A stretch of 63,340 bases of DNA, filler included, from Nemertoderma westbladi (lineage: Eukaryota; Animalia; Xenacoelomorpha), in the NCBI GenBank assembly GCA_032718475.1. It is 3 parts of 3 records of this genome, joined end to end, with 100 filler letters (N's around TTAATTAATTAA, not from the genome) between each part and the next. Parts side by side here need not be neighbours in the genome. Positions count along the whole stretch, not along the records: positions 1 to 25,424 come from JAUCBJ010000191.1; 2 more parts are not named here. The stretch is one strand, 5' to 3'. The position numbers and the translations under genes were made by a program. Shown in pieces: positions 1,512 through 32,931 of the stretch; the stretch's first letter is position 1; each line of letters opens with the position of its first letter. The notes under the pieces are model-generated. The model saw only the letters and a program-made list of their open reading frames with translations. It made no database searches and had not been told where the DNA came from.

Positions 1512-2540
1512 ATAAAGATTCCACACACCTACATTTTAGAAATGAATTACGGATGTCAATTCTGAAATTTATATTTATCTTAATATTTTATCTATTCTAA
1601 AGTTTATTGGTCTATATTTTGCCTTTTATATACGAACTACTGTACGTGCTACACACTTTATTCGCAGTTATAATGTCTCTAGTGTATATTGCTGGTAGTA
1701 CAGTAGCAAGTTTCTCACTATTATAATTGCAGTGCAGTCATTAGGTCTGTTATTGTAATCCCTTATCCCTTATTAATAATCAATATTGCATCCATATACT
1801 GTACAACATGTCCTGGAATATACTGTCTTTATTCACGGACCATTGACCTGAATAATGATTTTTCAACGAATCTTAATTAGATTGATTGCATTATATTTGA
1901 AACAGAGATAGATAGTTCCATCTCATTTATTCCCAGTTATTCGTCAAGGATTCCAAATATTTAACACAATATAAATTTCGTCGTAAAGTAACTGAGATAT
2001 GAGCGTTCGAATGTTGTATGGTGGACCTGCCCTAGGCTATTTTAATCTATTAAGTTATCTATTTTAATTATTATTATTTTCTAATAACTATTACTAATTA
2101 TTTTAAATTTTTAAATATTTTGCACGGCCAGTTTTCTAACATTACCAACAAGTCACTATAATGTTGAAAAATAACTGCGGTGTAACTGGCGCATTATCGA
2201 CGGATACACCTTTTTCATAAAGAATGTAACCGAAAATAAAAATTATGGCTCACCCAACAAGGAGGAGGTAGGTGAGTGGTTGAAACTATCTCTGTTTTAA
2301 ATGCCATGCAATCTCATTAAGATTTGCAGAAATATTTAAGGGAGGGGCACCTGAATAACGACACTATTCAAGTAGGCCTACATGGTTTTGGTAAATGTAC
2401 AGTACTAATTTATCTGGGAGACCGGCAACCCATAATACTAATAATAATGGGCATGTTGTTCTACTGTAGGGTATATACACTAGTGCTAATGCCAGGAATC
2501 ATCAAATCTGGCTCTGCCCATTAAAATGAAGCAAATAGTT

Positions 2541-2710
2541 ACTGTGTGGAACCTTTGACATGTCTAAAAGATTGTTAAAATAATGTGTGGAAGCTTTAAC
2601 CTTGTGGAACCTTTGGCACTACTGTTGAACCTTATATCATGTGGAACCTTTAACCCTGGGGAAACTTTAACCCTGCGGAACCTTTGGCACTACTGTTGAA
2701 CCTTTTACCT
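2541..2710 (-). repeat. Degenerate inverted copies of the satellite subunit (TGTGGAACCTTT[A/G]ACC); probable opposite end of a repeat-terminated MITE
   Basis: The reverse complement of GGTCAAAGGTTCCACA recurs several times. Confidence 0.6.
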
Positions 2711-3742
2711 ATAATATTCATAGGCCTATATCATTATTATTAATACTGTACTGTAGTAAACCAGTCCGCTGTACACTAGAGGTTTTGCCTATGGAGGTAC
2801 TAATCGTGAACGGAAACTGAACCACCTATAGTTGACCGTCAGTAGGCCTACCGGTACTGGGGTCTTCACCATACCAACAGTACCACAATACCCGGTACTA
2901 ATGGAGGCCTTGACCCTACCTGTACAGTGCAGTATCTATCTACGTATGTAGGGGTAGGCTACTTTGTAGGCAGTACATGCAGTGCATTTATTATTAATTA
3001 GTGGCAGTTTGGTTTACATAACACCCCAGAAAATAAATATCCGAAAAATAACTTGTAATAACAACTGAGAAAATACCGTACTGTAACTAAAACAACAACT
3101 ATTATAAAGGAAACATTAGACAGCTTATGGTTTATATCCGTATATCTAACATAACGTTAGTATTTGTTACTTATTTACTTAGTAATTCTAAGGCGAACTC
3201 AATTTAGTGTAGTTATACTACACCGTTGGGGCTGGTTAATAACAATAACAGTATTAGGCCTACAGTAATTAGATAGTCACTATCAACAGGTATAATATGG
3301 CCTTCAAACAACGCATCCTCGAGAGAACTTTGGTATCTGCCATTATTGGTCATCCATGTGTTTACCTGGAGTGATCAGGTGATCCTAATTACCTCAGCGC
3401 AGTGTACATTATTGGTTTGATGCTTATAGTAGCGACATCCGGTACCCAGATATACGTGTTTTTATAATGTATGTCTACTTACTGGTCAACGTTTGTAGGG
3501 CCTTATCGCCCCTTGCACCTTTACCGACCCCGTGGACCTTATCGCCCCTTGGGTACATATCGCCCCCAGGTCTTTATCGCCCATGGTACCTTATCGCCCC
3601 TATGACAAATATTTATTTTGAATGGGAGAAACGTTTAGGCTTAATAAGCCAAGGAATGCCTGTTCACCACCATGAGTGATCTTCCACAGTAAACCCTTCC
3701 TATGGTTCCCATTTATCGACCATAAAGGGTTTTTAAAGCCCC

Positions 3743-4286
3743 TGTACAGACTGAGATAACTCCCCACCAAATATGACTCCCCAGGCTTCTCAGCCTAGGC
3801 TGAGAACACTCCCCAGTTTTCTCCCTATTTTTATTAATTAACGGAAAGTAACAGGTTACAGTGGCGGGCTTTTCTAACCAAAACAATAAACGATAACTCA
3901 ATAACATACAGTGGGTTACAGTTTTTTTTTGCAATATACGAAAATAACACAGGTACGGATATGAATTATAACTCAATTAGGGGAGTCATCTCAGCCTAAG
4001 GGGAGTCATCTCATCCTAAGGGTGTGTTCTCAGCCTAGGCTGAAATAAATGGGGGGTGTTCTCAGCCTAGACGGAGATAACTGGGGAGTGTTCTCAGCCT
4101 AAGGGGTGTTATCTCAGCCTAAGGGGAGTGTTCTCAGCCTAGGCTGAAATAAATGGGGAATGTTCTCAGCCTAGGCTGAGATAACTGGGGAGTGTTCTCA
4201 GCCTAGGCTGAGATAACTGGGGAGTGTTCTTAGCCTAAGCTGAGATGACTGGGGAGTCATTTCAAGAGGGATCTCAGCCTTGTACA
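3743..4286. mobile_element. MITE with TGTACA(A/G)GCTGAGAT termini and CTCAGCCTAGGCTGAG subterminal repeats (further partial copies at ~4402-4490 and 4674-5270)
   Basis: TGTACAGACTGAGATAACTCCCC at the left end and ATCTCAGCCTTGTACA at the right end; palindromic internal units. Confidence 0.7.
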
Positions 4287-5220
4287 CCCCTCGCCCAAAC
4301 AGTACTGCGACGGAATGAAAGCCCAGATTGTTACCACTAGACCAAGAGGCTGCTTATGCTTAGTCTATGAATTTAATATGAATATTTATAATTGTGGCCA
4401 CTGTACAAGGCTGAGATAACTCCCACTTGAAATGACTCCCCAGTCATCTCAGGCTAAGCTGAGAACACTCCCCTGTTATCTCAGGCTAAGCATGGTGGAC
4501 AGCCCATGACTTTCTTGAGACGCATCTTAAAGGACACTGGCCTTAAAGATGCGGATGATCTAGCAAATGTCATGGGTGATAGGGAGTTGTGGCGGTGCAA
4601 TTTTGTTGACAAGCCGGCACAGCATTCTTAAAAATGCAGCTGCAATGCAGCATGCCGATCCTAGTAGTAGTAGTAACACAGGTACGGATATGAATTATAA
4701 CTCAATTAGGGGAGTCATCTCAGCCTAAGGGGAGTCATCTCATCCTAAGGGTGTGTTCTCAGCCTAGGCTGAAATAAATGGGGGGTGTTCTCAGCCTAGA
4801 CGGAGATAACTGGGGAGTGTTCTCAGCCTAAGGGGTGTTATCTCAGCCTAAGGGGAGTGTTCTCAGCCTAGGCTGAAATAAATGGGGAATGTTCTCAGCC
4901 TAGGCTGAGATAACTGGGGAGTGTTCTCAGCCTAGGCTGAGATAACTGGGGAGTGTTCTTAGCCTAAGCTGAGATGACTGGGGAGTCATTTCAAGAGGGA
5001 TCTCAGCCTTGTACACCCCTCGCCCAAACAGTACTGCGACGGAATGAAAGCCCAGATTGTTACCACTAGACCAAGAGGCTGCTTATGCTTAGTCTATGAA
5101 TTTAATATGAATATTTATAATTGTGGCCACTGTACAAGGCTGAGATAACTCCCACTTGAAATGACTCCCCAGTCATCTCAGGCTAAGCTGAGAACACTCC
5201 CCTGTTATCTCAGGCTAAGC
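3945..5220. repeat. 547-bp direct duplication (3945-4491 = 4674-5220) flanking a LINE 3' fragment; probable very long target-site duplication
   Basis: Both copies begin TAACACAGGTACGG and end CTCAGGCTAAGC, at a constant 729-nt offset. Confidence 0.9.
4487..4675 (+). mobile_element. 5'-truncated RTE-like LINE 3' end with (TAG)n tail
   Basis: Encodes HGGQPMTFLRRILKDTGLKDADDLANVMGDRELW...PAQHS*, nearly identical to the LINE C-terminus at 60461-60610(-). The 3' UTR has a GCTGCAATGCAGC inverted repeat followed by TAGTAGTAGTAG. Confidence 0.9.
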
Positions 5221-6601
5221 TGAGAACACTCCCCTGTTATCTCAGGCTAAGCTGAGAACACTCCCCACCAATAATTAAACTGCATAAGAATAACGGCGAT
5301 AAAGACCCTGGGGCGATAAATTCCTAAAAACTCAGAACAGAAGGGCGATAAGTTCCGAACTAAAATGCAATTTATAGGGGCGATAAAGTTCCAGGGGCGA
5401 TAAGGTCCTGCTTCGAAAAAAAATTTTGGTTTTCACTTTTCAATTTTATTGGAATTTTATATATGAAGAATTTTTATTTATTTTTAATTCCTTCTTATTA
5501 AGTTGCCTTATTAAGGCATAAGGGGTAAGCTGCAAACTGAATTATAACAGCAGAAAATGTGGTACAGTATATTTCGCTACTTAGCATGGGCCGGGTGTCC
5601 CACGCCCTACCGAAGAACAACGGCTGGCACTCCCTGAATCCCAGGGGCACAGGGAGGTCAACAGTTTCAATGCCACCACCCCGGTACGTCAACATATAAT
5701 TCATGGCACAACAAAAAATATTACGTGATGATAAATGACATTCAGTATACTTCCTTGTTTGTAATACTTTTTATAAAGGTGAAACTTTACGTGTACTAGT
5801 CCTTACGCAGGGTCTTTGTGACAAAGCCGAACTTTCTGTAATTCTGAAGTTAGCCGCTGCGCTAGAGTGCGAAATATCTGAAAGTGGGAGAAAATCATAA
5901 TCCTTTCCGTTATAAACGGCAAGGTAAAGGAACAGGTTACATTGGCAAGTTATTCTAACCAAAACAATAAACGATGGTCAAGAGCACAGGTTCCAATTTA
6001 ATTTGTGTTCGTAATAACATCTGTCGGTTGTCTGCTGCCGGTTGTCGGCGTAGCGTTTTTACCCGAAATAGTAGACGGTTTTCACTTTCGATATTTATCC
6101 AACATGCGCCGCTTTCTGTGTACGAATTACAACCTATTAGGGTGTAGTGGTTGAAAAAAGGGACTGCGGGGTAGTTTTCGTTTCCGCACGAAAGCTTTAA
6201 AGGGATTACCCAGGGTCCATCTGCGCCTTGCATACGTAAATGGTAGAACTGAATGAGTAGCCTACTACAGTAGTTTCCACTGAGATTGTGGAGTACCGGT
6301 ATAATTCTGGGGGGACCGCACTGGAAATACGTTGTCAGTCTTTGTGGGTAATCCATGGCGTAACGGCTGAAGAAAATCTCACTTTTCATTAATAAACAAC
6401 AATAAATGTATGTCATTTAATCCTGTTGTAATTTTTAACCAAAACAATAAACACGATATCATTAAAGAATAAGGGAGAGCAGCAGTTTACTGAGGGTGTT
6501 TCTTTTTTTTTCTACTTTGGGTTTTCTTTTGTTCTTTTGTGAGTTAAGTAACACCCTCAGTTATTGACTGTTGTCCAGGGGTTTCATTTGCAAATATTTT
6601 A

Positions 6602-7210
6602 TGTTAGCGGATCCAATCCGCTGCACCACCCCGCAGAGAATGGGGAAAGTCGTGATTTACGAATCACGATTGGATACGCAATATTGCATACTAGAGGGAA
6701 CAAGGCAATATACATTGCCAACCAGAGAGAGAGAGATGCCGGCACATATCAGGGGGAAGCCAACACAGGACCAGGAAAGACAGGGAATGGCTAAGGGAGG
6801 TAAACCAACCAATAGCGGAATGGCACACCATCAATTAGCGCGCATTTACTGGTAGGCCAATACAGTAAGCAATGTGTGTAACCTCCAATGTAATATCCAT
6901 ATAACTGTTAGTCAGTGTTAATTATGATTCAGTTGGCTACTAGTCGTGGTAGAAGTTATACGGTTTAAACCGTCGTCGTTACTGCTATTTATGTGCAATA
7001 CTGATTGTGTTATCATTACCGGTACCCATATTTCTGAGATTATTAACAACAATAATTGGGTTTACCCTAAGACTCAGAACCTTATTGTACCGGCCTTCGG
7101 CCTTTCAGCCCCCAAGCTTTAGTGACAACCACATCAGCTGACGTGGCGACGCGTATTGACCACGAATCACACACCGGTCGGGATCCCTCGCCAACTCGGA
7201 TCCCGTCACA
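6602..7210. mobile_element. Solo LTR (609 bp) with 5-bp TSD TTTTA
   Basis: Starts TGTTAGCGGATCC and ends GGATCCCGTCACA (imperfect inverted ends, TG...CA). TTTTA lies at 6597-6601 and 7211-7215. Confidence 0.8.
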
Positions 7211-7243
7211 TTTTATAATTTCTAACGAATTGAATTTTTTCAG

Positions 7244-7430
7244 CGGAGTTCCATAAGAACTTGTCGGTGGCGTTGTTGGAAGAAGTTATGAAACCAATGA
7301 AAACGTTGACAGATAGTCAGGTGCGAGTCCGAAGACCTATTGAGCACAATGTTAACAGAAGCTGGACGAATCTATCAGAAAAGAGAGCGGAAATGGTTAG
7401 AGCAAAGAAAAATGCATCAGCGAGGGCCAG
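7244..7430 (+). CDS. NOSTRIN: NOSTRIN-like F-BAR protein, internal exon A (EFHKNLSVALLEEVMKPMKTL...KKNASARAR)
   Basis: ttttttcag acceptor and gtgaat donor, open frame. Resembles the NOSTRIN F-BAR helix; phase-2 end fits the next exon. Confidence 0.85.
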
Positions 7431-7605
7431 GTGAATATTAATTAAATTACCTATTTATATTTTATACAATCCGAACAATTATTACTTAAATACTGAAGTA
7501 AAATAAAATAGGAGCGAAACTAACATTTTGCATTTCCATTTAGTAATTTACTCTTTAATTGTCGTAAATGATTTTTGTTAGCTTATGCATGTTATTTATG
7601 TTTAG

Positions 7606-7751
7606 AGAACGAGAATTTGCTAATGATCAAGTGTTCGATGCACAAAGAAACGAGAAAGATAAAGATATAGTTAAACTGAAACCAAAACTGGAGAGGGCTG
7701 AGGAAGCTGCGTCTAAAGCTGACCAAGAATATTACAGTCTGGCCATTACAA
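7606..7751 (+). CDS. NOSTRIN: NOSTRIN-like exon B (EREFANDQ...EEAASKADQEYYSLAIT)
   Basis: tttag/gttagt boundaries, phase-compatible; F-BAR KADxEYY motif. Confidence 0.85.
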
Positions 7752-7752
7752 G

Positions 7753-7884
7753 TTAGTACTATGGATATTGTTCGGAAAATGTGAAAAATTAAGCACGTCA
7801 CCTACCGCGGGTTGAACCTGCGCTATACGAGCGTTCCCGGCCTCAGCGCTAACCAGTTCAGACACTTTAACCCTGACACTTACT
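7753..7884 (-). mobile_element. Decayed copy of the tRNA-like/hammerhead element, with ribozyme core deleted
   Basis: The reverse complement GTGTCTGAACTGGTTAGCGCTGAGGCCGGGAACGCTCGTATAGCGCAGGTTCAACCC...GTGACGTGCTT aligns with 11405-11540 but lacks most of CTGATGA and one arm of stem II. Confidence 0.75.
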
Positions 7885-8031
7885 GAATATTTAATTAAAA
7901 TTTGTACCCCCCCCCCCCCCCCCCCCCCCCTGTTTCACAGTAACACATTTATTAAGGTCGTTAGGTTCGCTGTTAGAGATAGGATATGCATCTATGTCCA
8001 TCGCGCAGTCTAGTCTACTATATTTTAATTC

Positions 8032-8780
8032 TATATAAAAAATAAACAGGTAAAACCTCGTGTCTTTCACCCCGCAAACTAACAAAAACATAGAATCAGG
8101 ACATTAACGCCCAAAATAGTTCTCAGCCACTAGGGCCATCAAAAACCGCAAACAATACAAACAAAAACAACATAAACAAAAAAACAGCAAACAAAGTTTG
8201 ACAAACAGAGTTTGGTGCGATTATAGTAGGTCATTGGTGCGATTATAGTAGGTCATTGGTGCGATTTTAGTAGGTCATTGGTGCGATTATAGTAGGTCAT
8301 TGGTGCAATAAAGATAGGCTTTGGGTAATCCTTTGTCCAGCTGACAAGGTGTCTAGATTACCGCGTACTGGGTCTCAGACCCCGAAACGCAACCATATAT
8401 TTGATAAAATTAATTATTTTTGCCTTAGTTATATCCCTTTGCGGCGACAAAATGTCATATATTTTCTTCTAGAATATAGGCTTAGCCTTTGTGCAGTATA
8501 CTACCGGTATCATTTAGTGTATGGTGGTTAGGCTTAGGGTTAGGGTGCGATGCATACCTGTATGTTGAGCAGCTTTAATATATTTGTGTTATTTGTTTAT
8601 ATTGTAGTTTGTTTGTATTGTTTGCTGTTTTTTTGTTTATATTGTTGTTTGTTTGTATTGTTTGCGGTATTTTGATGGCCCTAGTGGCTGAGTACTACTT
8701 TGGGCGTTAATGTCCTGATTCTATGTTTTTTGTTAGTTTGCGGGGTGAAAGACCTCGAGTACCTGTTCATTTTTTATATG
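8032..8780. mobile_element. MITE with ~170-bp inverted arms, four internal 22-bp tandem repeats (TTGGTGCGATTATAGTAGGTCA, 8212-8307) and a short TTAGGG-like tract
   Basis: TCTTTCACCCCGCAAACTAACAAAAA...GGGCCATC is mirrored by GATGGCCC...TTAGTTTGCGGGGTGAAAGA. Confidence 0.85.
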
Positions 8781-9020
8781 TATATACAATTTTATATATA
8801 TTTGTTCTGGAACATATCCCAAAATTCTGGAGAAAAATAGCTTTTTATTCTGGTTGCTATGCCAAAAATTCCCATAAATCTATATTGCCATTGGATTTCC
8901 CAAAGTTTTGATATCTTTGGTTTGTGAAACAACCCAATAGGTATGGGTCCCCAATTAATTATACCATGATACGGCAACCAACTGCAGTAGGCCTACCACT
9001 TGTGTTGCCAGGCTACTAAC

Positions 9021-9247
9021 GGGTGAGTATAAAACAAAGACCAAAGACCCAATTAAGTAACCTGTATAATCTTGTAACTTTGTTAACTTTCGTTTATTGT
9101 TTTGGTTCCCCCAACACGCCCCTGTACTGCTCCTTTACTAACCTGCTCCTTTAAATGGCTATGTGACCTAACGCTCTTTGGGATCTAACGCGACTTTACC
9201 TCTTTGTATTGTACAGTGGGTCTTGTGTCTTTGTTTTGTACTCACCC
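9021..9247. mobile_element. Short MITE
   Basis: Terminal inverted repeats GGGTGAGTATAAAACAAAGAC and GTCTTTGTTTTGTACTCACCC. Confidence 0.8.
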
Positions 9248-10528
9248 TGCTACTGAAACCAGATAATGTTTGCACAGCAACAAATTTCAGTTACTCAGTT
9301 AAAAACAATGTCATCTATTTTCATAAATGGCCAGGTTGGTTAATTCTAAGCGGTTCGTTGTATGTGGGCGTGGGGGATTGAACCTATGTATGTTTATTAT
9401 ATGCATGTCTGATGTTCTGTATTAAATAATCTTCCAAATTTCATTTATGTCATTTATTACCGATGTAATTGATTGTTTATTTGAGACAAACGAACGCTTA
9501 TAAGACATCATATTGGCTTGTTGTCCATTGTTGCTCTTATTATTATTCAAAAAAATCTTTGATCAGCTGTTTTGCTCCTGTTGCCATGACAACCAGTGAC
9601 TTCAAAGTGACCAACCATCTAATAGCAAAATTATTATATACTGGGGGTAGGAGTTGAACTTCTAACCTCCAAGTTGACAACATAGATAGATTTCATTTTT
9701 TTATTTGTTTTTAAGATTAGATGAATTAAATTTCGAGTTGATCTGTTGCTATGTGAAACAGAGATTATTCTCGGATATACCAAAATTCTGTGCAATTTTC
9801 ATGAGGTTATATGGTGTCTTTTTGGCTGCACTCTAGATCGCCCCAATTTTGTGGGGTTTTTTTGGGTACCACTCCCCCTATACCAGATTTAACCACTGAC
9901 AGTAAGTACCTTGTTGTTGGCTGTGGGCCTTACTTTATGATCTAAGAAATATTAGAATAAGATAAGGTCATTCATGACAAGTTACAGTACTAATGATACT
10001 GTAATGTGATATAATACATGACAGTAATAGGCCTACTTATATGGAATTGTTATTACAAGTTATTATATTGAATAAGGTTATTATATTGTTATAGGTGACT
10101 AAATAGTACTAGAATAAGGGAAAAATAATAGAACAAGTTAGTTAATAATACTAGAATAAGGGAAAAATAATAGAACAAGTTAGTAAATAATATATATTAC
10201 CATACAGTATATGATTATTACTTAGTAATTGAGCTAGTATCCTAATGTTGATACTATAACTACACGAAGTTGTATGTAGTGTATAGAAGACATTTAACTG
10301 TGAAATTTCTAAATATGATGCCAGTAACCGTTAGTTTTGTAATTTAGGAAAGTGATTAACACATTATGGTAATTATTTATTTCGCATGTACATTTAATTT
10401 AATCAATTAATTAATTTTAATTAATTTAAACTATAAATAGAGGGGGGGGGGCGGTGCTTTCTACCCGGGTGCAAATTTGCCACACATAATCAGCCACCGT
10501 AATAACCATTTTCTTCTGTTTATTTTAG

Positions 10529-10658
10529 GTGAACGCGCTCGTCAAATGTGGGAAACCGTTCAGCAGAAAGCATTATTACAATTTGAAATGATGGAAAAGG
10601 ACCGTATTCATGTTATAAAGGAATTGTTTGAGAAGTACAATGTTCATTTACTAAGCAA
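10529..10658 (+). CDS. NOSTRIN: NOSTRIN-like exon C (SERARQMWE...EKDRIHVIKELFEKY)
   Basis: ttttag/gtaagt boundaries, phase-compatible; F-BAR WE...E..RI motif. Confidence 0.88.
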
Positions 10659-10896
10659 GTAAGTTTAAAAAGTACAACACTCAGAAAGCAAGAACGCTCA
10701 ATCATTAAGCAAGTTGACATGAATAGGTAACTACTAAAAATAATTGTGTATATATTATTAAAATGAAATTTAAATGCGTTGTAATTACTATTGTTTTCAT
10801 AAAAAAAAATACGTTAGGAAATACAACGAAGTATTTGGAAGTTGAAAATGTTATTGTTATAGTTTTTTTTTTTTATATATTTTTTTTTATTTCCAG

Positions 10897-10997
10897 GGTC
10901 CCTCAAATTGAACAAAATACACAGCAAGTGACGACAACTCTAAATTCAGTAGATGATATTCAAGACATTACTGCAGTATCCGGAGAAAAAGGCACAG
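10897..10997 (+). CDS. NOSTRIN: NOSTRIN-like exon D (VPQIEQ...VDDIQDITAVSGEKGT)
   Basis: ttccag/gtgaga boundaries, phase-compatible; end of F-BAR (VD..QDI). Confidence 0.85.
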
Positions 10998-11409
10998 GTG
11001 AGAGCGCCGAATAATATGATACCAAATGTATTTTATTTCGAGTTTTTCTTCTGGGTAATACTGTAGTAGATTTATTTTGTTCCAGAATAATTTAATAAAT
11101 TGCACAATTTGAAAATAAATCCAACACCAAATTTAGAGTTATTCATAGTCGACAATCAACTAAGCCAAGCTGGTATATTTATTTCAGTTGAATTTGATTT
11201 TTTAGATTAAGTCCTGTACTTGATTTTGATTTATATGATTTATTAATATCACCTGGCAACAATACTCGAGCTGAATATTTATTTATTTGTACTTTCCTCC
11301 TCTTTCACTCTAACATACTTGAGGCCGGTAGGTCCGCTGTTAGAGATAGGATATGTAACGTAACACTGCCTGTTCAATAGAAGTGGATTAGGTGGGAGAG
11401 TGAATGTCA

Positions 11410-11540
11410 GGGGCAAGTGGCTGAACTGGTTAGCGCTACTGATGAGGCCTGATAGGCTGAAACGTACGTATAGCGCTGGTTCAACCCCCGGTGACGTGCT
11501 TTCTCATTTTTTCCATTTCTGAACAAAACTATAATATTAC
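11410..11540 (+). mobile_element. SINE-like element with Pol III A box (TGGCTGAACTGG, 11418-11429) and B box (GGTTCAACCCC, 11478-11488) bracketing a hammerhead ribozyme
   Basis: Both boxes match the tRNA-type internal promoter consensus at plausible spacing; a related copy lies at 7753-7884(-). Confidence 0.65.
11431..11478 (+). ncRNA. Minimal type I hammerhead ribozyme; predicted cleavage after GUA at 11470
   Basis: Stem I TAGCGCTA/TAGCGCTG; CTGATGA at 11439-11445; stem II GGCCT-GAT-AGGCT; GAAA at 11459-11462; short stem III C-GTAC-G with palindromic loop; GTA triplet. Confidence 0.85.
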
Positions 11541-11816
11541 ACCTTGATTTTGATTAAACCCCGCCCCTGAAGCTACCCTGTCACTACCCGTTTCCACTAG
11601 CCTATCTACTAGCGGTCTGAAGCTTCGCGAGCCCCTCAAACACATCTGTTGAACGGCGAATGTAATTAAACATATGGAGAGCCCTCTCTGTATTTTATTT
11701 CCGTATTTCTCAGTATATCATATTTCTTCCATGTTACTGTAAATAAAACTGAAGAGCAATGTTTTAATTGTTGTATTATTTCCGTATTTAAGTTAAATAT
11801 TGAGTATATTATACAG

Positions 11817-11995
11817 GGGCTCTTGAACCAGAGCAATGGTTGTATGACGTCATAGAAGTTGATCTTATGTTCCCCATGGACGTTAAGAGAAGAAAACGTT
11901 TTCTTGAACAAAAGTTAGCGACGGTATCCAATGAAATTCGTTCAGAATTGAAAGGGAAAGAAGGAGTGGATAAGCTGAACCGGGTATACAATGAG
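11817..11995 (+). CDS. NOSTRIN: NOSTRIN-like exon E, start of HR1/REM-1 (EQWLYD...MDVKRRKRFLEQKL...GKEGVDKLNRVY)
   Basis: atacag/gtaact boundaries; resembles the NOSTRIN MDxxRRKxxLxxKL...KEG pattern. Confidence 0.9.
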
Positions 11996-12712
11996 GTAAC
12001 TTAATTTTATACAAAGAATTACGAATCTTCAATTACAGTTATTTAGTTTGTTATCTAAAGTATTCGCTAGTGTATACAACTAACATGCCCTGCTAACACG
12101 GCTTAATAGCACTCAATTAAGTATTCTAAGTGGGGGCATGGGCGCAATCAAACAATCTACAGGGGTAAATCGACTCAAATAACAGCTGATTACTCCCAAA
12201 AATTTAACCATAACCTGTTCTATTGAAGTGACTTTCGTTTATTGCTTTGGTTTGAATAACGTGCTACTGTAACCTGCTCCTTTCCTTTAATTGATAATTT
12301 AACATCGGAGCGAGAAATTAATTCGAAGTGCGCGAGATGGAATTTGCCTCCCCCATGTCTCCATAATCTAATGTTTTCCTGGTATCATGGTTTTCCGGTG
12401 ATATTTATGATTAAAAATGAAACACATATTCTTACGCAGTTGTCAGTTTGTTGTTGTATTTATTTATTATTTGTCTCCTATTGGCATTGTGTATGACAAA
12501 CTACATCATCTCTCCTCGAGCCAATATTGATTGATCTTTCCGGTCGGGTGTTGTGCATGCCTAAAACTAATAAGTTGGAGCTGTTACTCTGAAACTATTG
12601 ATTAGTATTACTACTGTAGAAGTTCAATATAAATATTCTAAAATTATATTAACAAAACTATTTACATAATTACAGAACAATAGAAAAAATTGAATACGAG
12701 ATAAAATTGCAA

Positions 12713-14980
12713 TTAATCAATGCGAGTATATACAAAGATTAAACAGCGATCGATTTCCTCGGCCGCTCTTGTTCTCATTTTGACGTGGGAGTATCCCTGT
12801 TCTATAGACGTGAAGGGCAGCGCATACTGGCAGATAAAATCATCGCCACTCCGCTTATCGTAGTCGTAAACAGCTAATCGAAGGATCGCAAGACTCGGCA
12901 TACTGACCACGAAATCAAACTCCTCCTCCCACACTGGATTAAAACCGTTGTTGTTGACGACTTTCGTCTGAACTTCGTCCAAATCCTTGGGAACACCATG
13001 AACTTGGATCCGCACGTACGGATCGATAACTTCGCCCTTTTCCGAGTTGTTCGGTTTCGGGAGTTCATGTCCCGCGATTACACGTAGATGCAGCGTTCTC
13101 GCATGTTTACGCGAGACGCGCCCGGGGTCGTAACTGGACCCGGGGCGGGTCAAAGCCTCGGGTTTCAGTATGAATCCGCACCCGCCATTATCCCGGAAAC
13201 GAGCTTCGTTTAGCTGCATTTCCAGACAGCGGGTCTGATAGTTGAGAGCAACTATTTGACAGCCAACAGTCCACAGGGGGACCGGGTTGTAGTTGTCTGA
13301 TGCAGTGCGACGCCCCGCTGGATAAATCCTCACCAATCGCGAGGCATTACTTGCGGTAAACTCCTTAGCATTTTGATTCAGCAACTGCAGCGCTTTATCT
13401 TCGTTTAAGGAAGATATCCGATCGGCGGTGTATTCACTCACCGCGTGTTTAAAACCTTGAAATTTCGCTCCTCTCAGGTAAAACAAACTCGCCAATTCCG
13501 GGGCAACTGCTATCTTCTTTTTACCTTTCTTTCCTGCCATCTCATTCTGAATATTTACATCATCTATTTCCGCTGCTTCATCCTCATCCGAGACATTTAT
13601 AACATTATCATCATCTAATATTGATGGTTTAGAACCTTTTCCTTTAATGATAATTTTCATTCTTAGCTTTTCAGGAGAGTCGAGAAACCCCGTAACAGGT
13701 GGTTCAGTGCAGAGCCAGTCAGATAAATACTGGTTAATGTATCGAGCAATCTTTCTTTGAACCGGGACTGAACAATGGTTCTCAAAACTCAATATCAATG
13801 GATATTGGCTGATTCTAAACGCATAATGGGACACCGCTTCTAGGATGTCTCGCACAGCAATCTTGGAAGTCAGTGTATGACCGTGGTAGACAATGGGTTC
13901 CCCATCCACTCCGTCCCACAAATCCAACTCTAAACACCTGCAGCCCAGCATAATGGCTCGTATGTACGCTTCTACGGAGCTAGGCCCCATCAGCTGGTCC
14001 TGGGTCAGATAGGTGTTGTGTGAAGAGGCAATAAAGTAGTGGGAAAGTGGTTGACTCATATCCTGATAGACCCTCAGGTGACTTTGGTTGAATATATTGC
14101 AGGCATTAGAAAGGAGAAAGCATCTGAAACCTGTAAGGCTTAGTAGTCCATTTGCTATGTTATGGGGTTTCTTTTCGTAGCTCTGAACCACCTGGAGGCA
14201 GGTTTCTTTTGAAACATCAGACCACTTTTGGGCCGAAACCAGAAATCTCCTAATAACATCGAGATCCATAAATTGATTATTACTATACATCCCAAAGACT
14301 TCGTCAATATCTTTTCTTTGAGTTAACTTTGAATAAAATTCCATAAATTCATCTTCTGTTAAATATGTAGCCTTCCTGTTGCTTTTCTCTGACCTTTTTG
14401 CTATTTCGTGAAATAAATTGTAAGTAACTGATTTCTCGAGCTTTATATTTAATTTTTTGAGAAGATCCGTCATTTCCTTCAAGGTAACTCGTTCGTCTCT
14501 GTCCTTATCGGCCCGAACGAAAACCTTTCGAACCCAAACGTCTTCATCTGCATCGGTATCAACATCCATGAGATGCGATAATCCTCGAATCCATATATCA
14601 GACAGTTCGGTCGAATCGGCTACAAAATCCCATGTATCGCCTCTTTCGTTGATAATAAGACTGAACGCCCTCTTCTCCCTATCTGTTAGAGAATCCTTAT
14701 GACCGGCGAATACAGCTGTTCTATAACCGCTCCTCACTTCCTTGATATTAATAATTTGTACAACATTGGGTTTTGTGTTTGTGACTGTTTTCTTGGATGG
14801 GGAATAGGATATTGAGTCGGCGTCTTTATTCAATGTTAGAGTTTTAGTCTTCACCCAATTTTTGAATGAGTATCTCAGAATCGAGGATCCTTCTTTCATT
14901 GTTTTTATACATTCGGCTATATGTGGGGGGCTGGATGTTTTGGGTCCATTTTGCTTCGAATAAGGATTTCGTTCCCCCAT
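12713..14980 (-). CDS. PLCD: Phosphoinositide phospholipase C, delta-like (PH, EF-hand, X, Y, C2); 755 aa, intronless, nested antisense in a NOSTRIN intron
   Basis: X-box YFIASSHNTYL, GCRCLELDLWDG, VYHGHTLT, SFENHCS; Y-box RIYPAGRR...QIVALNYQT; C2 DPYVRIQVHG...NNGFNPVWEE. Ends just after C2, as in the delta class. Confidence 0.95.
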   Translation of the reverse strand: MGERNPYSKQNGPKTSSPPHIAECIKTMKEGSSILRYSFKNWVKTKTLTLNKDADSISYSPSKKTVTNTKPNVVQIINIKEVRSGYRTAVFAGHKDSLTDREKRAFSLIINERGDTWDFVADSTELSDIWIRGLSHLMDVDTDADEDVWVRKVFVRADKDRDERVTLKEMTDLLKKLNIKLEKSVTYNLFHEIAKRSEKSNRKATYLTEDEFMEFYSKLTQRKDIDEVFGMYSNNQFMDLDVIRRFLVSAQKWSDVSKETCLQVVQSYEKKPHNIANGLLSLTGFRCFLLSNACNIFNQSHLRVYQDMSQPLSHYFIASSHNTYLTQDQLMGPSSVEAYIRAIMLGCRCLELDLWDGVDGEPIVYHGHTLTSKIAVRDILEAVSHYAFRISQYPLILSFENHCSVPVQRKIARYINQYLSDWLCTEPPVTGFLDSPEKLRMKIIIKGKGSKPSILDDDNVINVSDEDEAAEIDDVNIQNEMAGKKGKKKIAVAPELASLFYLRGAKFQGFKHAVSEYTADRISSLNEDKALQLLNQNAKEFTASNASRLVRIYPAGRRTASDNYNPVPLWTVGCQIVALNYQTRCLEMQLNEARFRDNGGCGFILKPEALTRPGSSYDPGRVSRKHARTLHLRVIAGHELPKPNNSEKGEVIDPYVRIQVHGVPKDLDEVQTKVVNNNGFNPVWEEEFDFVVSMPSLAILRLAVYDYDKRSGDDFICQYALPFTSIEQGYSHVKMRTRAAEEIDRCLIFVYTRID

Positions 14981-15629
14981 TATTAGGTAATCATATATTA
15001 TTTATAATAGTTTTCAATTCACACTATATATCGATGTTTATTACTGTTCATTATATAAAAACACTCCCTATAATTCAATTAAGTCTACTCACTACCTGTA
15101 ATTATAATTGTAATATTATCTTGATGATGATATGTTAGTAGGTCATTTATAAATTGTATAAAGTCAAGTAATAATAATAATTTTAATCTTCTACAGTAGT
15201 TTAGGTAATTTAGTTTGAAATATTGCCAGCCTTCTTGTATGGATTACAAATGAATATATTATCACGAACACGAACACCGTGTCCTAAGTGTACCGCACGC
15301 TATCACCCTGGCCAAAATTCCCTCCCTAAATGAGTGTGAAGGATAATATGGATATTATTATTAGTAGTAAATAGTACTGGTAATAAAGTAATTTTTAGGT
15401 CTACATTGTAGACAATAGAGGGCCGGATTAAACTAAAATTAATTGTGAGCTAATTATCTTGAACATTGAAACCACAGCGATTGTAATGTATTGTGTATAC
15501 AGTACAATATGGTCGGGGTCTAAACAACTAATCTATAAACAACCTAATACATTGTAGGTCAGATAGAAGGCGACTCGCGACAGTGTTGGGATCATTATAT
15601 CTATATTGTAGAGACTCAGGGAAGTCTAT

Positions 15630-15850: not shown

Positions 15851-16267
15851 TGGTTGTACTTTGGTTGATATAGTCTAACAATGCAGATGGGGTAGGGGTG
15901 GGGTTGGGATTTTCCCAGATCCTTTACCTTATTTGATAAGTTAACAATGAGACGAGATAATTATCCGAGATTGGATTTGCGTCAATTGGATCGCTTTAAA
16001 GTTCGGTTATAATAATTCAAACCTTCCCGCTATTTCTAGTAATATGGATTTTTTTCCCTTTTCCTTTGTGTAGTATTTTTCGAATCAATCTTTGGTGCCA
16101 ATTTTGTACCTAATAAAAGTAACAAACAAAAACAAATTGGCAACATAACAAAATTGATTTTAACAATATTTAGCAGGATGAAAGAAAGCCTTCGCGCAGC
16201 ACGAGAAATTAAGTGAAGCCTTATTTATAGAACAAATATTACTTTTTTTTCGAATACTCGAATATTA

Positions 16268-17188
16268 CCATGGCCTACTATATTTATATGGCCTAACAGG
16301 TCACTTGAAGTGGCCTCTTAAAAAGAGGCAAGTTTTTTTTACAACAATTTGATATTTTGATATGGGGAGAGTTCTATAAATTTTCATTTGCTGCAAATTG
16401 GTCAACGGAGGTAATTGAAGTCTCTTCGTTAAGTAAGATACTACACTTTATAGTAGCTAGTATTTTAGATAGGTTTAGCTAGTAATTTCGACACTGGTTC
16501 CGACATCCTACTTCCTACTATTAATATTTTGCAGTAGCTAGTTCTTATTACTATTTGTATAGAAAATGTTCCAGAACATGTTAGCTAGTCATTTAAAAAA
16601 AATTATGTTCTAGAACAAATATTTTTTGTTCTAGAACATTTTTTAGAAAAAAATCTGGATTCTATTTAAAACGCATGGAATCGTTCTAAAACGTGTTTAA
16701 AACCCATAAAAAAAATTTCAAAATTTTTTTTTTTCACAATTTTTTTTTATTCATTTTAAATACGTTTTAGAACGATTCCATGCGTTTTAAATAGAATCCA
16801 GATTTTTTTCTAAAAAATGTTCTAGAACAAAAAATATTTGTTCTAGAACATAATTTTTTTTAAATGAATAGCTAACATGTTCTGGAACATTTTCTATACA
16901 AATAGTAATAAGAACTCGCTACTACAAAATATTTATAGAGGGAAGTAGGATGTCGGAACCAATGTCGATATTACTAGCTAAACCTATCTAAAACACTAGC
17001 ACCATAAAATTTGTTATCTTACTTAACGAGGATGCTTCAATTACGTCCATTGACCAAATTGCAACAAATGAAAATTTATAGAACTCTCCCCATATCAAAA
17101 TATCAAAATAGTGTAAAAAAAAACTGGCCTCTTTTTAAGAGGCCACTTCAAGTGACCTGTTAGGCCGTATAAATATAGTAGGCCATGG
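16268..17188. mobile_element. ~920-bp foldback/palindromic MITE with TA flanks
   Basis: TA|CCATGGCCTACTATATTTAT...ATAAATATAGTAGGCCATGG|TA. The ~450-bp arms are close reverse complements around ~16725. Confidence 0.92.
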
Positions 17189-18757
17189 TATTACACATAT
17201 GACTAACATGAAACTTGAATTAAGACTAATACAAAACAAAATAAGTAGTTCTGAAATCATTTACTAGAGGATAGATGTTAACTTTTTATTACTATTAAGA
17301 AAAGTTAACTTTTCCCCACTATGGAATAAAACGCTACTTTTCATATTTTAGTTTTCACAATTTTTCACAATATTCACAAGTTTTCACTTAGACAACAATT
17401 TTTCTGTTAGGGTTTTTCTGGATGGTGATTTCATTTCCAATGAAAGTTTTTTCGTTTGCTGGCAGCCAAACTGTATGTTTGGTTATCCGACTGTCAGTAA
17501 TATTTTGACAGACTGACTGACAGACCGACATCCACAAAGACAGACACTGCGTCGTCAAATCTAAAAGTTTAAAAACTGACTTCAGAAATGAAATCTCTGA
17601 CCAGGAAAACCCTTAGAACAGAAATTTTAGCTGGGTTGCGTGCTTGCTTACATTTCGACAGACTGACCGACAGACAGCACAGTCAATCCAACCAAACGCA
17701 CTCTAACACCAAGCGGGTGAATAATAAATCCATTTGAGCTGCAATCCGTAAATAAGTGATGGACGCTAGTACCGAAAGCTCTATCATAACTAAAAGATAA
17801 TATAATTTGGTAACTTTAAAGGATTTTAATAAAATTGTTATGCAAGCTTTATCTACTGTACTTTAATGGTCCAGAGCTACTTACAATCTTACAGTCGTAG
17901 AATGTGATTAAATAACCATAATATTTATCTACCAAAATAACCGTTATTATTAATCAACTTCCACGAAATAATATATTAGCTGACTACCATTACTGTATGT
18001 AATAATCTCCCCCATGCAGGCCATTAATACACAATAACTAATTGATTTTTATCTACATTATTTCATCAGAAATGTATCTTTATATCGAATCCGCATCTCA
18101 GTGGTTTCATTCTATTTAACCTGGGCGACCTAGCAACGCCCACTGTCAAATTCTTTGGCAGTGACTAGCTGACCGAGACTGTGTGTAGGTTGCAGTTGCT
18201 ATGATACAATAGGATTTGCTGTTAATCTAAACAAACTTTCGCCCTCCCACCTCCTACTAATAGGGGGAACGATTCGGTGTAGCAGTTGCTTTATTCCCCC
18301 TTCCGGAATGACCTTGACTCCCATCTTCAAAACTTAATTATTATTATTCTCAGATTTTCGATTCGGTGTATTCACCTGTACAGTATGTATCACTGTAAGT
18401 AAGTAAGTTAGTTATGTGTAAATTCATTGAGAATTTTGACAGTCGCATCTTGCAAAAATAACGCCCAATTTAGAATACGTCCAATTAGTCCTTCTTTACT
18501 TCTAATGATCAACTTTATAATAATTAGTGTGTAGCGAACTTTATACTTAGTGTGATTAACTTTATTCTTATTGTGACGAAGATTTTACTAAATGTAATTA
18601 TAATTCACTTTATACCTAGTGTGACGAACTTTATAATTAGTGTGATTAACTTTATCCTTTGGGTGGTGACTGATTTTCTACATTCTTCTGAGAGTGCGTG
18701 TTGGTAATGAATGCAAGTGGCTCTGATTAAAATTAATGTGACTTACTTTTCTTACAG

Positions 18758-19129: not shown

Positions 19130-21044
19130 TTATTACTGTATTTTATTACTGTATTTTATTACTGTATTTTATTACTGTATTTTATTACTGTATTTTATTA
19201 CTGTATTTTATTACTGTATTTTATTACTGTATTTTATTACTGTATTTTATTACTGTATTTTATTACTGTATTTTATTACTGTATTTTATTACTGTATTTT
19301 ATTACTGTATTTTATTACTGTATTTTATTACTGTATTTTATTACTGTATTTTATTACTGTATTTTATTACTGTATTTTATTACTGTATTTTATTACTGTA
19401 TTTTATTACTGTATTTTATTACTGTATTTTATTACTGTATTTTATTACTGTATTTTATTACTGTATTTTATTACTGTATTTTATTACTGTATTTTATTAC
19501 TGTATTTTATTACTGTATTTTATTACTGTATTTTATTACTGTATTTTATTACTGTATTTTATTACTGTATTTTATTACTGTATTTTATTACTGTATTTTA
19601 TTACTGTATTTTATTACTGTATTTTATTACTGTATTTTATTACTGTATTTTATTACTGTATTTTATTACTGTATTTTATTACTGTATTTTATTACTGTAT
19701 TTTATTACTGTATTTTATTACTGTATTTTATTACTGTATTTTATTACTGTATTTTATTACTGTATTTTATTACTGTATTTTATTACTGTATTTTATTACT
19801 GTATTTTATTACTGTATTTTATTACTGTATTTTATTACTGTATTTTATTACTGTATTTTATTACTGTATTTTATTACTGTATTTTATTACTGTATTTTAT
19901 TACTGTATTTTATTACTGTATTTTATTACTGTATTTTATTACTGTATTTTATTACTGTATTTTATTACTGTATTTTATTACTGTATTTTATTACTGTATT
20001 TTATTACTGTATTTTATTACTGTATTTTATTACTGTATTTTATTACTGTATTTTATTACTGTATTTTATTACTGTATTTTATTACTGTATTTTATTACTG
20101 TATTTTATTACTGTATTTTATTACTGTATTTTATTACTGTATTTTATTACTGTATTTTATTACTGTATTTTATTACTGTATTTTATTACTGTATTTTATT
20201 ACTGTATTTTATTACTGTATTTTATTACTGTATTTTATTACTGTATTTTATTACTGTATTTTATTACTGTATTTTATTACTGTATTTTATTACTGTATTT
20301 TATTACTGTATTTTATTACTGTATTTTATTACTGTATTTTATTACTGTATTTTATTACTGTATTTTATTACTGTATTTTATTACTGTATTTTATTACTGT
20401 ATTTTATTACTGTATTTTATTACTGTATTTTATTACTGTATTTTATTACTGTATTTTATTACTGTATTTTATTACTGTATTTTATTACTGTATTTTATTA
20501 CTGTATTTTATTACTGTATTTTATTACTGTATTTTATTACTGTATTTTATTACTGTATTTTATTACTGTATTTTATTACTGTATTTTATTACTGTATTTT
20601 ATTACTGTATTTTATTACTGTATTTTATTACTGTATTTTATTACTGTATTTTATTACTGTATTTTATTACTGTATTTTATTACTGTATTTTATTACTGTA
20701 TTTTATTACTGTATTTTATTACTGTATTTTATTACTGTATTTTATTACTGTATTTTATTACTGTATTTTATTACTGTATTTTATTACTGTATTTTATTAC
20801 TGTATTTTATTACTGTATTTTATTACTGTATTTTATTACTGTATTTTATTACTGTATTTTATTACTGTATTTTATTACTGTATTTTATTACTGTATTTTA
20901 TTACTGTATTTTATTACTGTATTTTATTACTGTATTTTATTACTGTATTTTATTACTGTATTTTATTACTGTATTTTATTACTGTATTTTATTACTGTAT
21001 TTTATTACTGTATTTTATTACTGTATTTTATTACTGTATTTTAT
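19130..21044. repeat. Apparently perfect 13-bp tandem array (TATTACTGTATTT), about 147 copies
   Basis: Direct periodicity. The 693-aa ORF simply repeats LLLYFITVFYYCI (3 units = 13 codons). Confidence 0.97.
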
Positions 21045-21393
21045 CCAGGACGAGATTTGCTTCAATACCCCTCCTCCCTCCTGTCTCTCCATATGTCACA
21101 ACAAACTGTGGCAGCCCCACATACATTGTACAGTCTCAGAAACTTTGTTATTACGGTCGCCTAGCAACCCTAGAGTTTAGTACTGCCGACTGACAGAATT
21201 GTACCACGGTACTGCAGTATGCCTTCAGCCTGTCAGCAATCACTCGAACTTGAGTTATATACGTTTTCGTTTCGTGGCTGGACGCCATCGCCACATTGGT
21301 GACCCAGCGTCTCAAGACGAACTCTTGAGACCGCGACTCGCAACACGATCCTGCAATCGAACTGGAACAGCCACCGAAACTGTGTTGACGACA

Positions 21394-22098
21394 ATGGCCG
21401 AAGCGACCGCCAACGCCGTTTCTATTAAACTGCCTCCATTCTGGACCACCCAACCCGAGGTGTGGTTCGCCCAGGCGGAGGCGCAGTTCCACATTCGGAG
21501 CATCACCGAGGACGCTACCAAATATTATTACGTGGTGGGGGCCCTCGACCAGGAGACAGCCGCTCGCCTCCTAAAACTCATACGGAACCCTCCAGCTACT
21601 GATAAGTACCTCAAACTCAAGGGCCAACTTCTCAAGGCCTTCGGGCTCTCCCGACGCGAGCGCGCAGCCCGACTCTGGGACCTCGACGGCCTCGGTGACC
21701 GGCGCCCCTCGCAACTCCTCGGAGAAATGCAGGCGCTCCTCGGCGACGACAACGCGGGACTCCTCTTCGAGGAGGCCTTCCTCCGGCAGATGCCCGCCGC
21801 AATCCGCCTCCAACTAGCGGAGGAGGACTTCCGCGACCTCGACAGGGTTGCGGACCGGGCCGACGCGCTGTGGGAGGCCTCCCGGCAGACCTCACTCGCG
21901 GCCCACGCCGTCAGGAAACCGACGCCGGTCCCGCCACAGCGAACCGGCAAGAACTCCTCGTCGGCGTCGACTCCCGCCCCGCGGGCCCCGAACTCGAACC
22001 CGGACTGGTGCTATTATCACCAGACGTTCGGCCCCACAGCCAGGAAGTGCCGCCAGCCCTGCAGTTACCAGGGAAACGCCCCGGCCGGCCGTTTGTAG
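21394..22098 (+). CDS. gag: Gag
   Basis: VSIKLPPFW...[10 protein letters not shown]-terminus and a CHCC knuckle [18 protein letters not shown]. Confidence 0.92.
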
Positions 22099-22116
22099 CA
22101 GCTACAACGGCCGGCC
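22071..22116 (+). promoter_or_regulatory. -1 programmed ribosomal frameshift signal: G_GGA_AAC plus downstream hairpin
   Basis: X_XXY_YYZ heptamer in the gag frame (22071-22077), 5-nt spacer, then stem GGCCGGCCGTT-T-GTAG/CTAC-AACGGCCGGCC (22083-22116). pol is in the -1 frame. Confidence 0.85.
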
Positions 22117-25100: not shown

Positions 25101-25220
25101 CCGAACGCACCTCCGGTACCTCCTACACCGCCGGTACTAACGCAAAGACCACCAACCCCAACCCAACCGCCCGTACAAACTCGATCGGGCCGGACGGTCC
25201 GTCCACCTGATTATCTGTAA
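22071..25220 (+). CDS. pol: Pol (protease, RT, RNase H, integrase), uninterrupted
   Basis: LVDTGAEVS; RMPFGLKNA and YLDD; VDAS...TDHKPL; HGLSHPG...[25 protein letters not shown]. Confidence 0.96.
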
Positions 25221-29050: not shown

Positions 29051-29524
29051 CTAAAACATAAACCTATAACATAAGCAAAGATTTCGTACCTTCGCCGATA
29101 TCTTTAGTTTAATTTAAGAGAAGAAGAAATGGTGTAATAAATAAACCAATTCGCAATGATAAAAAACCCAGGAAACATGTTGGCAGGCCTACTGTGTGTA
29201 TAGTTAATATAAAAATTACCAAATTAGTGCAAAAGTTAATAAACATGTAGTAAGTGAGATATACAATACTGAGCTGAGCACCGTAATTTATATAATAAAA
29301 TATATATAATACCATTGGTAGCAAATAATACTTAGCCTAGAGGTTATAATAATTACCGCTGAGACCAAGCCAACCTTTCAGCTGTGGGTCCCGTCCCCGC
29401 AGGGGCAAACGATCACAATTTCACCCTGACCACCCACCCCCCGCCCCCACCCTAAAAAGCTCCATTTGTTTGTATTCATAGAAAGCTGACCATGCAAGGA
29501 TTCCAAATGTTTAAAAATATATGT

Positions 29525-32158: not shown

Positions 32159-32645
32159 GACGGTAAGCTGAAGCTGGTTACAGTGTGACAGGGTTACCAG
32201 GTTACAGTTTAGGTACTTTAGGGTCCGTCAGATCAACGAGTCAGGTTCATGTGTTTAGTACTGTAGTACCGGTTCTTTTGTCTTTTAGAAGTGCGAAATA
32301 TACTAGTGCAGTAGTGCAGTAGCTGAGTACAGGAGTAGTGTGTCTAGTGATAGTGCTGTAGTCTGGTAGTGCAGTACAGCAGTGGTGTCAGAGTTTAGTT
32401 AACTAGGCAAGGCATACAGTACTGCAGTAGGCCTACTTCACCCTGCTGCAGTGTTGCCTACTGTAGGGCGAGCCACGAAAGTAAGCGAGCTTAGCATAAG
32501 TACCACTATCTCAATCGGTGTGTCACTCGCTCTGCCTGTCCTGTCCAATATTTCAATTTTATATTCAGTCTGTACCGGTACTCTTTCATGGAAATTAATT
32601 ATTTAAATTAGCAGTAAAGGAATTTATATGTAAATAAATTATACA

Positions 32646-32888: not shown

Positions 32889-32931
32889 ATAAAAATCATA
32901 CAGCTGGAATTTCCAAACACTAATCCATTAA

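Follow-up and report, generated by a model that had tools for sequence, protein, structure and literature searches.

What kind of mobile element carries a hammerhead ribozyme between the two internal promoter boxes of a tRNA gene? The question is raised by a locus in a 63,340-nucleotide stretch of DNA from Nemertoderma westbladi, hereafter the window, where a preliminary description had proposed a compact, self-transcribing and self-cleaving retroelement. The locus is read here as a nearly unit-length, dispersed copy of a very abundant non-coding repeat, likely an animal non-LTR retrozyme, with the hammerhead motif enclosed by a promoter motif of tRNA origin to which RNA polymerase III (Pol III) is likely recruited; we hold this reading with slightly better than even confidence. 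It builds on direct observations of the motifs, a target-site duplication, the abundance of the family and the fit of its variation to the fold. The features are collected in Table 1.

Table 1. Positions, along the window, of the element and its parts, of a second copy and of the host intron.
Feature	Position	Strand	Remarks
Left target-site duplication, 13 bp	11219-11231	+	Exact repeat of 11543-11555
Right target-site duplication, 13 bp	11543-11555	+	Exact repeat of 11219-11231
Whole insertion, 311 bp	11232-11542	+	Family-like sequence from ~11238-11242 to 11541
Non-coding body upstream of tRNA-like part	11242-11403	+	No run of 4 T
Outer helix, 5' strand	11404-11409	+	Predicted by folding to pair with 11492-11497
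Pol III A box motif	11418-11429	+	tRNA D-loop, positions 8-19; 0 mismatches to consensus; 11425 is A or G in the family, both of which fit
Hammerhead motif, type I	11431-11478	+	Between A box and B box, at the spot of a tRNA anticodon arm; cut predicted after 11470
Stem I, 5' strand	11431-11438	+	Pairs with 11471-11478; formerly 3' side of tRNA D arm
Core CUGAUGA	11439-11445	+	Variation of at least 1% solely at free position 11443
Stem-loop II	11446-11458	+	11446-11450/11454-11458, five pairs, three-base loop; first pair G-U in window copy, G-C in most of the family
GAAA, one-pair stem III and triplet GUA	11459-11470	+	GAAA 11459-11462; C-GUAC-G 11463-11468; predicted cut after 11470
Stem I, 3' strand	11471-11478	+	Pairs with 11431-11438: 7 Watson-Crick and 1 G-U
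Pol III B box motif	11478-11488	+	tRNA T-loop; 0 mismatches; no variant of at least 1% in X1 or X3
T6 tract, predicted Pol III terminator	11507-11512	+	The element's one run of at least 4 T
Second, decayed copy, arm 1	7750-7884	-	Matches 11399-11544; core destroyed by deletions; blastn 72% over 134 columns, E 1e-12
Second copy, inverted arm 2	7876-7990	+	Matches ~11264-11357; head to head with arm 1
Host intron, GT-AG	10998-11816	+	Before exon for TOCA-family HR1 domain; element in sense

The preliminary description had placed a complete type I hammerhead core between an A box and a B box, at the position of a tRNA anticodon region. Every motif was recovered at its place, with the ribozyme lying between exact boxes that begin at 11418 and 11478. 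The hammerhead descriptor has a single match in the whole 63-kb window; 300 shuffled windows gave 2 loose matches and none with a stem I of at least 7 and a stem II of at least 5 pairs. The motif is not a product of chance, since the descriptor is complete and none as good occurs in the shuffled windows. The Rfam model Hammerhead_1, suggested earlier as a check, has no match to the element; the sole Rfam hammerhead match there is Hammerhead_3, whose 19.7 bits (E 0.67) fall far short of the 48.5 cut-off. An Rfam search over the whole window returned 11 matches up to E 5, none of them at the element. The preliminary description had named the minimal type I hammerheads of Penelope-like elements and animal retrozymes as known counterparts. 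Helix II of 4–5 bp, helix I of 6–8 bp with a distal helix and the lack of an extra base after A9 instead place the motif, by its geometry, with the canonical animal retrozyme type. Animal Penelope hammerheads are mostly minimal, with a helix II of 7–8 bp, a helix I of 4–5 bp and an extra base after A9 (PMC4209133).

As a monomer, the window copy does not have the hammerhead as its best predicted fold, and stem I has a probability of ~0.49; when the family's common letters are put in, the hammerhead rod becomes the best fold and stem I reaches ~0.9. Folded as two strands, the sequence gives as its best structure a double hammerhead in which the cores are open and stem III, of 8 bp, is intermolecular. 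A perfect 8-nt palindrome, ACGUACGU, overlaps stem III at 11462-11469, and together with the two-strand fold it supports the earlier proposal that the palindromic stem III is suited to dimers. The predicted energy gain on dimerisation is ordinary, being matched by 57 of 100 shuffles, and it is the topology alone that counts; folding of the whole region is unremarkable (z 0.28). The axolotl hammerhead HHR_Amex1 likewise has a one-pair stem III and a palindromic tetraloop; it reaches 6% cleavage as a monomer and cleaves well when dimeric (PMC7229834).

The two exact promoter boxes are 48 nt apart, a workable spacing. When one mismatch is allowed in each box the window holds 12 box pairs, among which the 11418/11478 pair alone is free of mismatches. 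These scores refer to consensus sequences for the two boxes, and the landmark score to a list of tRNA landmark positions. All 19 of the 19 D-loop and T-loop landmarks are kept, unpaired ones included, such as G18 and G19 in a bulge; the joint D-loop and T-loop pattern has one match in the window, at 11418, against 10 in the 300 shuffled windows. The boxes had also been proposed to pair with one another and so to lengthen stem I past a 4-nt bulge. This held, with 7 of 8 pairs formed between the B box and 11419-11426 on the A-box side, beyond a bulge at 11427-11430. A UG stands six pairs past the cut and loop 2 is readable as five bases ending in A, a layout that may allow the loop 1–loop 2 contact. 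If this layout holds, the helix between the boxes would be the distal helix that closes loop 1.

In tRNA numbering, the 32-nt core presumably replaces positions 28–44, and stem I is formed by the D arm's former 3' side and positions 45–52. The tRNA stems are decayed, with 2 of 4 pairs in the D stem and 3 of 5 in the T stem as judged by eye. ARAGORN finds no tRNA gene at the element at its default, 95 and 90% thresholds, and neither does the Rfam tRNA model; a match at an 85% threshold was rejected for its different D arm and invented intron. Judged from the sequence, the tRNA cloverleaf with its anticodon arm is gone from the element. E. coli tRNA-Ile(GAU) and tRNA-Ala came out about equal as parent tRNA, their scores being reached in 16 and 45 of 2000 shuffles, and neither was assigned. 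Derivation of CUGAUGA from the anticodon loop of tRNA-Ile is unsupported because tRNA-Ile and tRNA-Ala align about equally well.

The outer helix strand at 11404-11409 falls in what is presumably the Pol III start zone, where by rule transcription would begin near 11404. The T6 tract begins 37 nt past the predicted cut, and in the family it shows no substitution of at least 1% in X1 or X3 (two of the data sets introduced below) and an extra T in ~1%. A Pol III gene of such a layout is predicted to yield an RNA of ~110 nt that ends 37–42 nt past the cut. For yeast, a T6 tract is reported to free the polymerase without help, with incomplete pausing (bioRxiv 2021.08.27.457903). An RNA of ~110 nt cannot be the template of a 311-bp copy. 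Because the conserved T6 predicts the 110-nt RNA, unit-length RNA would need read-through or transcription by Pol II. Conservation of the A and B boxes could also stem from pairing within the RNA instead of promoter use.

The two 13-bp target duplications are distinctive, as only 2 of 274 windows of like geometry hold such a repeat and one of these is the 11219/11543 locus itself. The target site is AT-rich and ends in ATT. The longest stop-free frame in the element is 74 aa, GC content over 11300-11600 is 46.5%, and the window copy has no poly(A) or simple-repeat 3' tail. The tRNA–hammerhead portion makes up the 3' third of the insertion, with the A box starting 186 bp inside. Contigs of the family that leave the alignment before 11405 carry on as element sequence, and copies reach at least 170 bp upstream of the A box. 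An ordinary SINE head is ruled out because the copies run on upstream of the tRNA-like part; nor is the element a compact 130-nt SINE, since an internal Pol III promoter cannot transcribe at least 170 bp upstream of its own A box in the same copy. Of the compact self-transcribing retroelement first proposed, retroposition, high copy number and the interlocking of boxes and ribozyme have stood; compactness has given way to 311 bp in place of 130 bp, and self-transcription to the short RNA predicted from T6. An LTR or TRIM element was rejected on the 13-bp duplication; the TRIMp3 elements Helenus and Ajax reportedly have short duplications of 4–5 bp. The window copy crosses the predicted cut site intact, so its template was either uncut or religated there. 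Around the second copy (7750-7990) a target duplication of more than 6 bp was not seen.

Family members were surveyed by aligning to the window locus the contigs assembled in four public runs (X1–X4) from this organism; 4 of the 6 runs listed contain the stretch, and none of these is listed as RNA. In X1–X3 summed contig depth is 2e4–5e5 inside 11242-11541 against 13–64 on the covered flanks, giving inside-to-flank ratios of ~900 to 12,700, where depth does not equal copy number. The family is very abundant. Depth is ~2.5–3 times greater over the 3' part of the element, and its drop near 11540 is partly an edge effect. C at 11458, which gives a G–C first pair in stem II, accounts for 67, 72, 60 and 86% of the summed depth in X1, X2, X3 and X4. 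The G–U pair reported in the preliminary description is thus correct for the window copy, and it is the minority state in the family.

Over 11396-11560, X1 and X3 together hold 15 variants of at least 1%, in a list that misses the variants at 11404-11425 near its left edge and was used from 11431 on. Seven lie in the ribozyme (11431-11478): at 11443 (N7), in loop 2 (11452, in about half), at 11458 (pair 10.1–11.1), twice in loop 3, at the cut base, where GUA becomes GUC, and in stem I, where a pair is broken (1.2% and 0.2%). The monomer fold accommodates six of the seven, whereas it would accommodate 42 of the 144 changes that are possible (binomial p 0.003), the seven being non-independent draws. 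One of the two loop 3 variants would weaken the homodimer. Taken by itself, the lack of variants at the 11 invariant core bases does not reach significance (p 0.14), and no two-sided compensatory change in the ribozyme stems was seen among the family variants. The family looks young, and its conservation may reflect recency.

Loose contig ends are found behind 11541 in X4 (5 contigs, agreement 0.74), with related lines behind 11545 in X1 and X2 (0.52), and before 11242 in X1–X3 (0.60–0.65) and before 11238 in X3 (0.97). The right-edge loose ends finish in the motif that opens the left-edge ones, and ~45 bases would link the two edges, an overlap judged by eye from 24 of 885 rows at a consensus agreement of 0.5–0.97. 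This suggests a head-to-tail or circular unit of ~345 nt. The window copy is single, not tandem. Among the 15 of 70 joints shown, there is no contig across a head-to-tail junction and no empty allele. In the survey that gave the variant list, 8 of the 15 joints shown change strand. Joints at 11471-11472, the first bases past the predicted cut, make up 2 of these latter 15 and occur in one further contig, a weak hint of cleavage in vivo from too few cases to weigh. Loose ends at 11528-11529 were considered as fixed 3' ends and dropped, as they look like sequence variants. Several contigs in X1–X3 jump from 11434-11457 to 11507-11509 and represent copies without the ribozyme tip and the B box.

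Metazoan non-LTR retrozymes are described as non-coding units of 150–450 bp with target duplications longer than 4 bp (PMC7229834). The window element shares these features, having a type I hammerhead motif with an intact core, 311 bp of non-coding sequence, a GC content below 50% and a 13-bp duplication. It resembles axolotl retrozymes of the Rtz_331/HHR_Amex1 type in its type I hammerhead, non-coding length (~350 nt), dispersed monomers and likely Penelope mobilisation (PMC7229834; bioRxiv 10.64898/2026.07.22.740005). Unlike metazoan retrozymes as described in these two sources, whose main texts name no Pol III or tRNA-type promoter for them, it has tRNA-derived A and B boxes enclosing the ribozyme, followed by T6.

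The nearest precedent for Pol III promoter and hammerhead in one repeat is the Sm-alpha/Sj-alpha family of Schistosoma, which combines a tRNA-related Pol III promoter with a type I hammerhead in a repeat of ~335 bp and needs tandem copies for propagation (PMC6765202, PMC2770079, PMC8490949). A figure legend describes Sm-alpha as 'a promoter followed by a hammerhead' (PMC6765202), and tRNAscan still calls a tRNA in it, with 2,342 tRNA-Gln-like copies reported (PMC2770079). The nested layout read from the window sequence differs from this arrangement: the ribozyme sits between the boxes in place of the anticodon arm, no cloverleaf is left, the boxes are part of stem I and the predicted cut separates A from B. 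With Penelope pseudo-LTRs the element shares a palindromic stem III region, inverted 5'-truncated arms and AT-rich targets (PMC4209133, PMC11167929, PMC8557442), and it differs from them in its canonical helix sizes and tRNA promoter boxes; no reverse transcriptase or GIY-YIG frame lies inside or beside the window copy. Like the element, Helenus and Ajax are non-SINE retroelements whose Pol III promoter is internal and tRNA-like; both belong to the LTR elements and have no described ribozyme, whereas the window element has a central hammerhead and a 13-bp duplication (Kojima 2024, PMC10886601). Our searches of the open-licence literature yielded no element in which A and B boxes enclose a hammerhead.

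Under the favoured reading, Pol III would start near 11404 in head-to-tail arrays of the ~345-nt unit and mostly stop at T6 (~110 nt). A minority of transcripts would read through one T6 into the next unit, the alternative being Pol II read-through. One read-through in an array would produce an RNA with exactly two hammerheads, the substrate for a double hammerhead, in which the two would pair via the ACGUACGU palindrome and cut after GUA. In the resulting unit RNA the B box would lie at the 5' end and the A box at the 3' end, and stem I together with the A/B helix would hold these ends for ligation, perhaps by RtcB, as in vitro for other retrozymes; the order A–ribozyme–B would be restored solely by a rejoined or uncut junction. 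A Penelope-type reverse transcriptase/endonuclease would then copy the circle or the uncut RNA into AT-rich DNA. The Penelope enzyme of the anole is reported to cut at ATT in AT-rich DNA, to start inside AC-rich RNA and to use uncut RNA (PMC11167929). Inverted, truncated arms are a described trait of Penelope-like insertions (PMC8557442), and animal retrozymes have been traced back to Penelope ends in a 2026 preprint (bioRxiv 10.64898/2026.07.22.740005). By analogy, the inverted second copy and the strand-changing joints point to Penelope-type mobilisation of this element. Long target duplications are also typical of LINEs, and a LINE enzyme is a possible alternative mobiliser.

The most serious challenge to a working Pol III unit is that the element is a retrozyme with a dead promoter, whose boxes are kept for their mutual pairing and the closing of loop 1 and whose arrays are transcribed by Pol II read-through, to which T6 is no obstacle. 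That the boxes pair at 7 of 8 positions would be expected on this account, as would the loss of the cloverleaf (D stem 2/4, T stem 3/5, nothing from ARAGORN), and a conserved T6 would block unit-length Pol III RNA; newt satellite hammerhead repeats also appear to be Pol II transcripts (PMC6765202). Against a dead promoter, all 19 landmark bases are kept, the unpaired G18 and G19 included, and the lone run of at least 4 T in 311 bp lies exactly at the terminator position of a tRNA gene, which fits a working Pol III unit. It is because of these unpaired landmarks and this T run that we favour a working Pol III unit, which we put just above even, and regard a dead promoter as unlikely.

Less probable again is that the copies form no separate retrozyme and are pseudo-LTR fragments, truncated on the 5' side, of an autonomous, coding Penelope-like element with a captured tRNA promoter. 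The head-to-head inversion in the second copy and the opposite-strand joints fit this, and so do the AT-rich target ending in ATT, as cut by the anole enzyme (PMC11167929), and the ~2.5–3 times higher depth over the 3' part. Yet there is no frame over 74 aa, the helix sizes are canonical where animal Penelope hammerheads are mostly minimal (PMC4209133), and the right-edge loose ends return to the left edge, not into coding sequence. Very improbable is an ordinary SINE or satellite of tRNA origin, with a hammerhead-like centre that is either dead or incidental. The Rfam hammerhead score is far under its cut-off and core-deleted copies exist (the second copy and the joints that skip the core), both in keeping with a dead centre; however, the descriptor is complete and absent from shuffles at full stem lengths, the canonical pair is present in most of the family and the variants lie at sites that tolerate change, and the tRNA part is not 5'-terminal and is followed by no poly(A) or simple-repeat tail.

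Engineered tRNA cassettes that carry a hammerhead in the anticodon region exist. A bolder extension of the favoured reading, which we think improbable, is that the element is a natural cassette of this kind with a built-in lock. The hammerhead would stand in for a Pol III gene's anticodon arm, both promoter boxes would double as the helix closing loop 1, and the cut would split the promoter, so that a promoter-competent DNA copy could arise from circularised or uncut RNA only. With the stop at T6, thousands of loci would make a 110-nt RNA that pairs by the palindrome with transcripts carrying a sense copy, so that introns and UTRs of the host are cut in trans. A ribozyme that depends on dimers and is produced at many loci as a short Pol III RNA would be naturally suited to cleaving host transcripts in trans. 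Compared with Sm-alpha, the one known Pol III–hammerhead repeat, the nesting would mean that the same bases act as DNA promoter and ribozyme helix, and that the promoter parts would change order on cleavage. Animal retrozymes make abundant small circular RNAs, and the exact Pol III boxes and terminator make the promoter question directly testable through predicted sizes of ~110 nt uncut, ~66 + 40 nt cut and ~345 nt for the unit. If the promoter is dead, the element remains a retrozyme built from a tRNA gene.

The element had been placed in sense within an intron of NOSTRIN. The intron stands, with one X4 contig joining the exon that ends at 10997 to the exon that starts at 11817; the gene name was not confirmed, and the downstream exon encodes a TOCA-family HR1 domain (Pfam PF25610, E 2e-6). 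Among 29 + strand frames scanned in 5300-12700, this exon alone is above the Pfam cut-off. The host-gene homolog search found nothing, and the best solved-structure match is FNBP1L at E 0.18. The animal is without close reference proteins; an unbroken 762-codon frame at 12713-15001 (-), phospholipase C delta-like, has 38–42% identity to its best animal matches. X4 does not cover the unique intron flanks and is probably a transcript assembly, labelled DNA by guess; otherwise it holds an intronless copy. It contains 123 element-like contigs, some of them long and running over the cut site; contigs are silent on level and strand. The preliminary description had allowed that the single copy might cut its host pre-mRNA. 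By analogy with dimer-dependent hammerheads this is unlikely, because of the dimer requirement, unless a partner RNA is given in trans.

Relatives were sought in other collections. Viral contigs gave 0 matches to a 27-base family pattern and 9 to a loose pattern, which when read showed no hammerhead-like stems; metagenomes had 0 family members, prokaryote genomes gave 9 matches, none with stems, and phage blastn gave 4 short matches (E 0.07–3) and no family member. A general pattern matched 17 times in metagenomes: 13 matches are without a hammerhead and 4 represent one unrelated type III repeat. Four contigs of one JGI data set (L014:36-125, L015, L018 and L022) share a 124–131-base repeat at the contig start and differ downstream. 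In the repeat a hammerhead-like motif of type III, scored by Rfam Hammerhead_3 at 27.6 bits (E 0.006) and thus below the cut-off, precedes a T-loop motif resembling a B box; the latter was a requirement of the search pattern, and no A box passed. It is possibly an independent hammerhead–tRNA hybrid.

Elsewhere in the window, long gag-like and 1173-aa pol-like frames at 21181-25220 (+) read like a Ty3/gypsy LTR retrotransposon, the family being assigned by eye, and are accompanied by a direct repeat of 187 bp (21107 and 25246); a 13-bp tandem repeat of ~1.9 kb (19130-21035) adjoins this LTR-like element. A 930-bp near-perfect inverted repeat (91%) at 16263-17193 is foldback- or MITE-like. A block duplicated at 32626-36263 and 46312-49856 with 97–98% identity contains LINE-like endonuclease/RT fragments and 59-bp tandem repeats, the latter with loose A/B box pairs that carry mismatches. 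Further tandem repeats have periods of ~41/82 bp at 1-1511 and 18 bp at 29523-30730.
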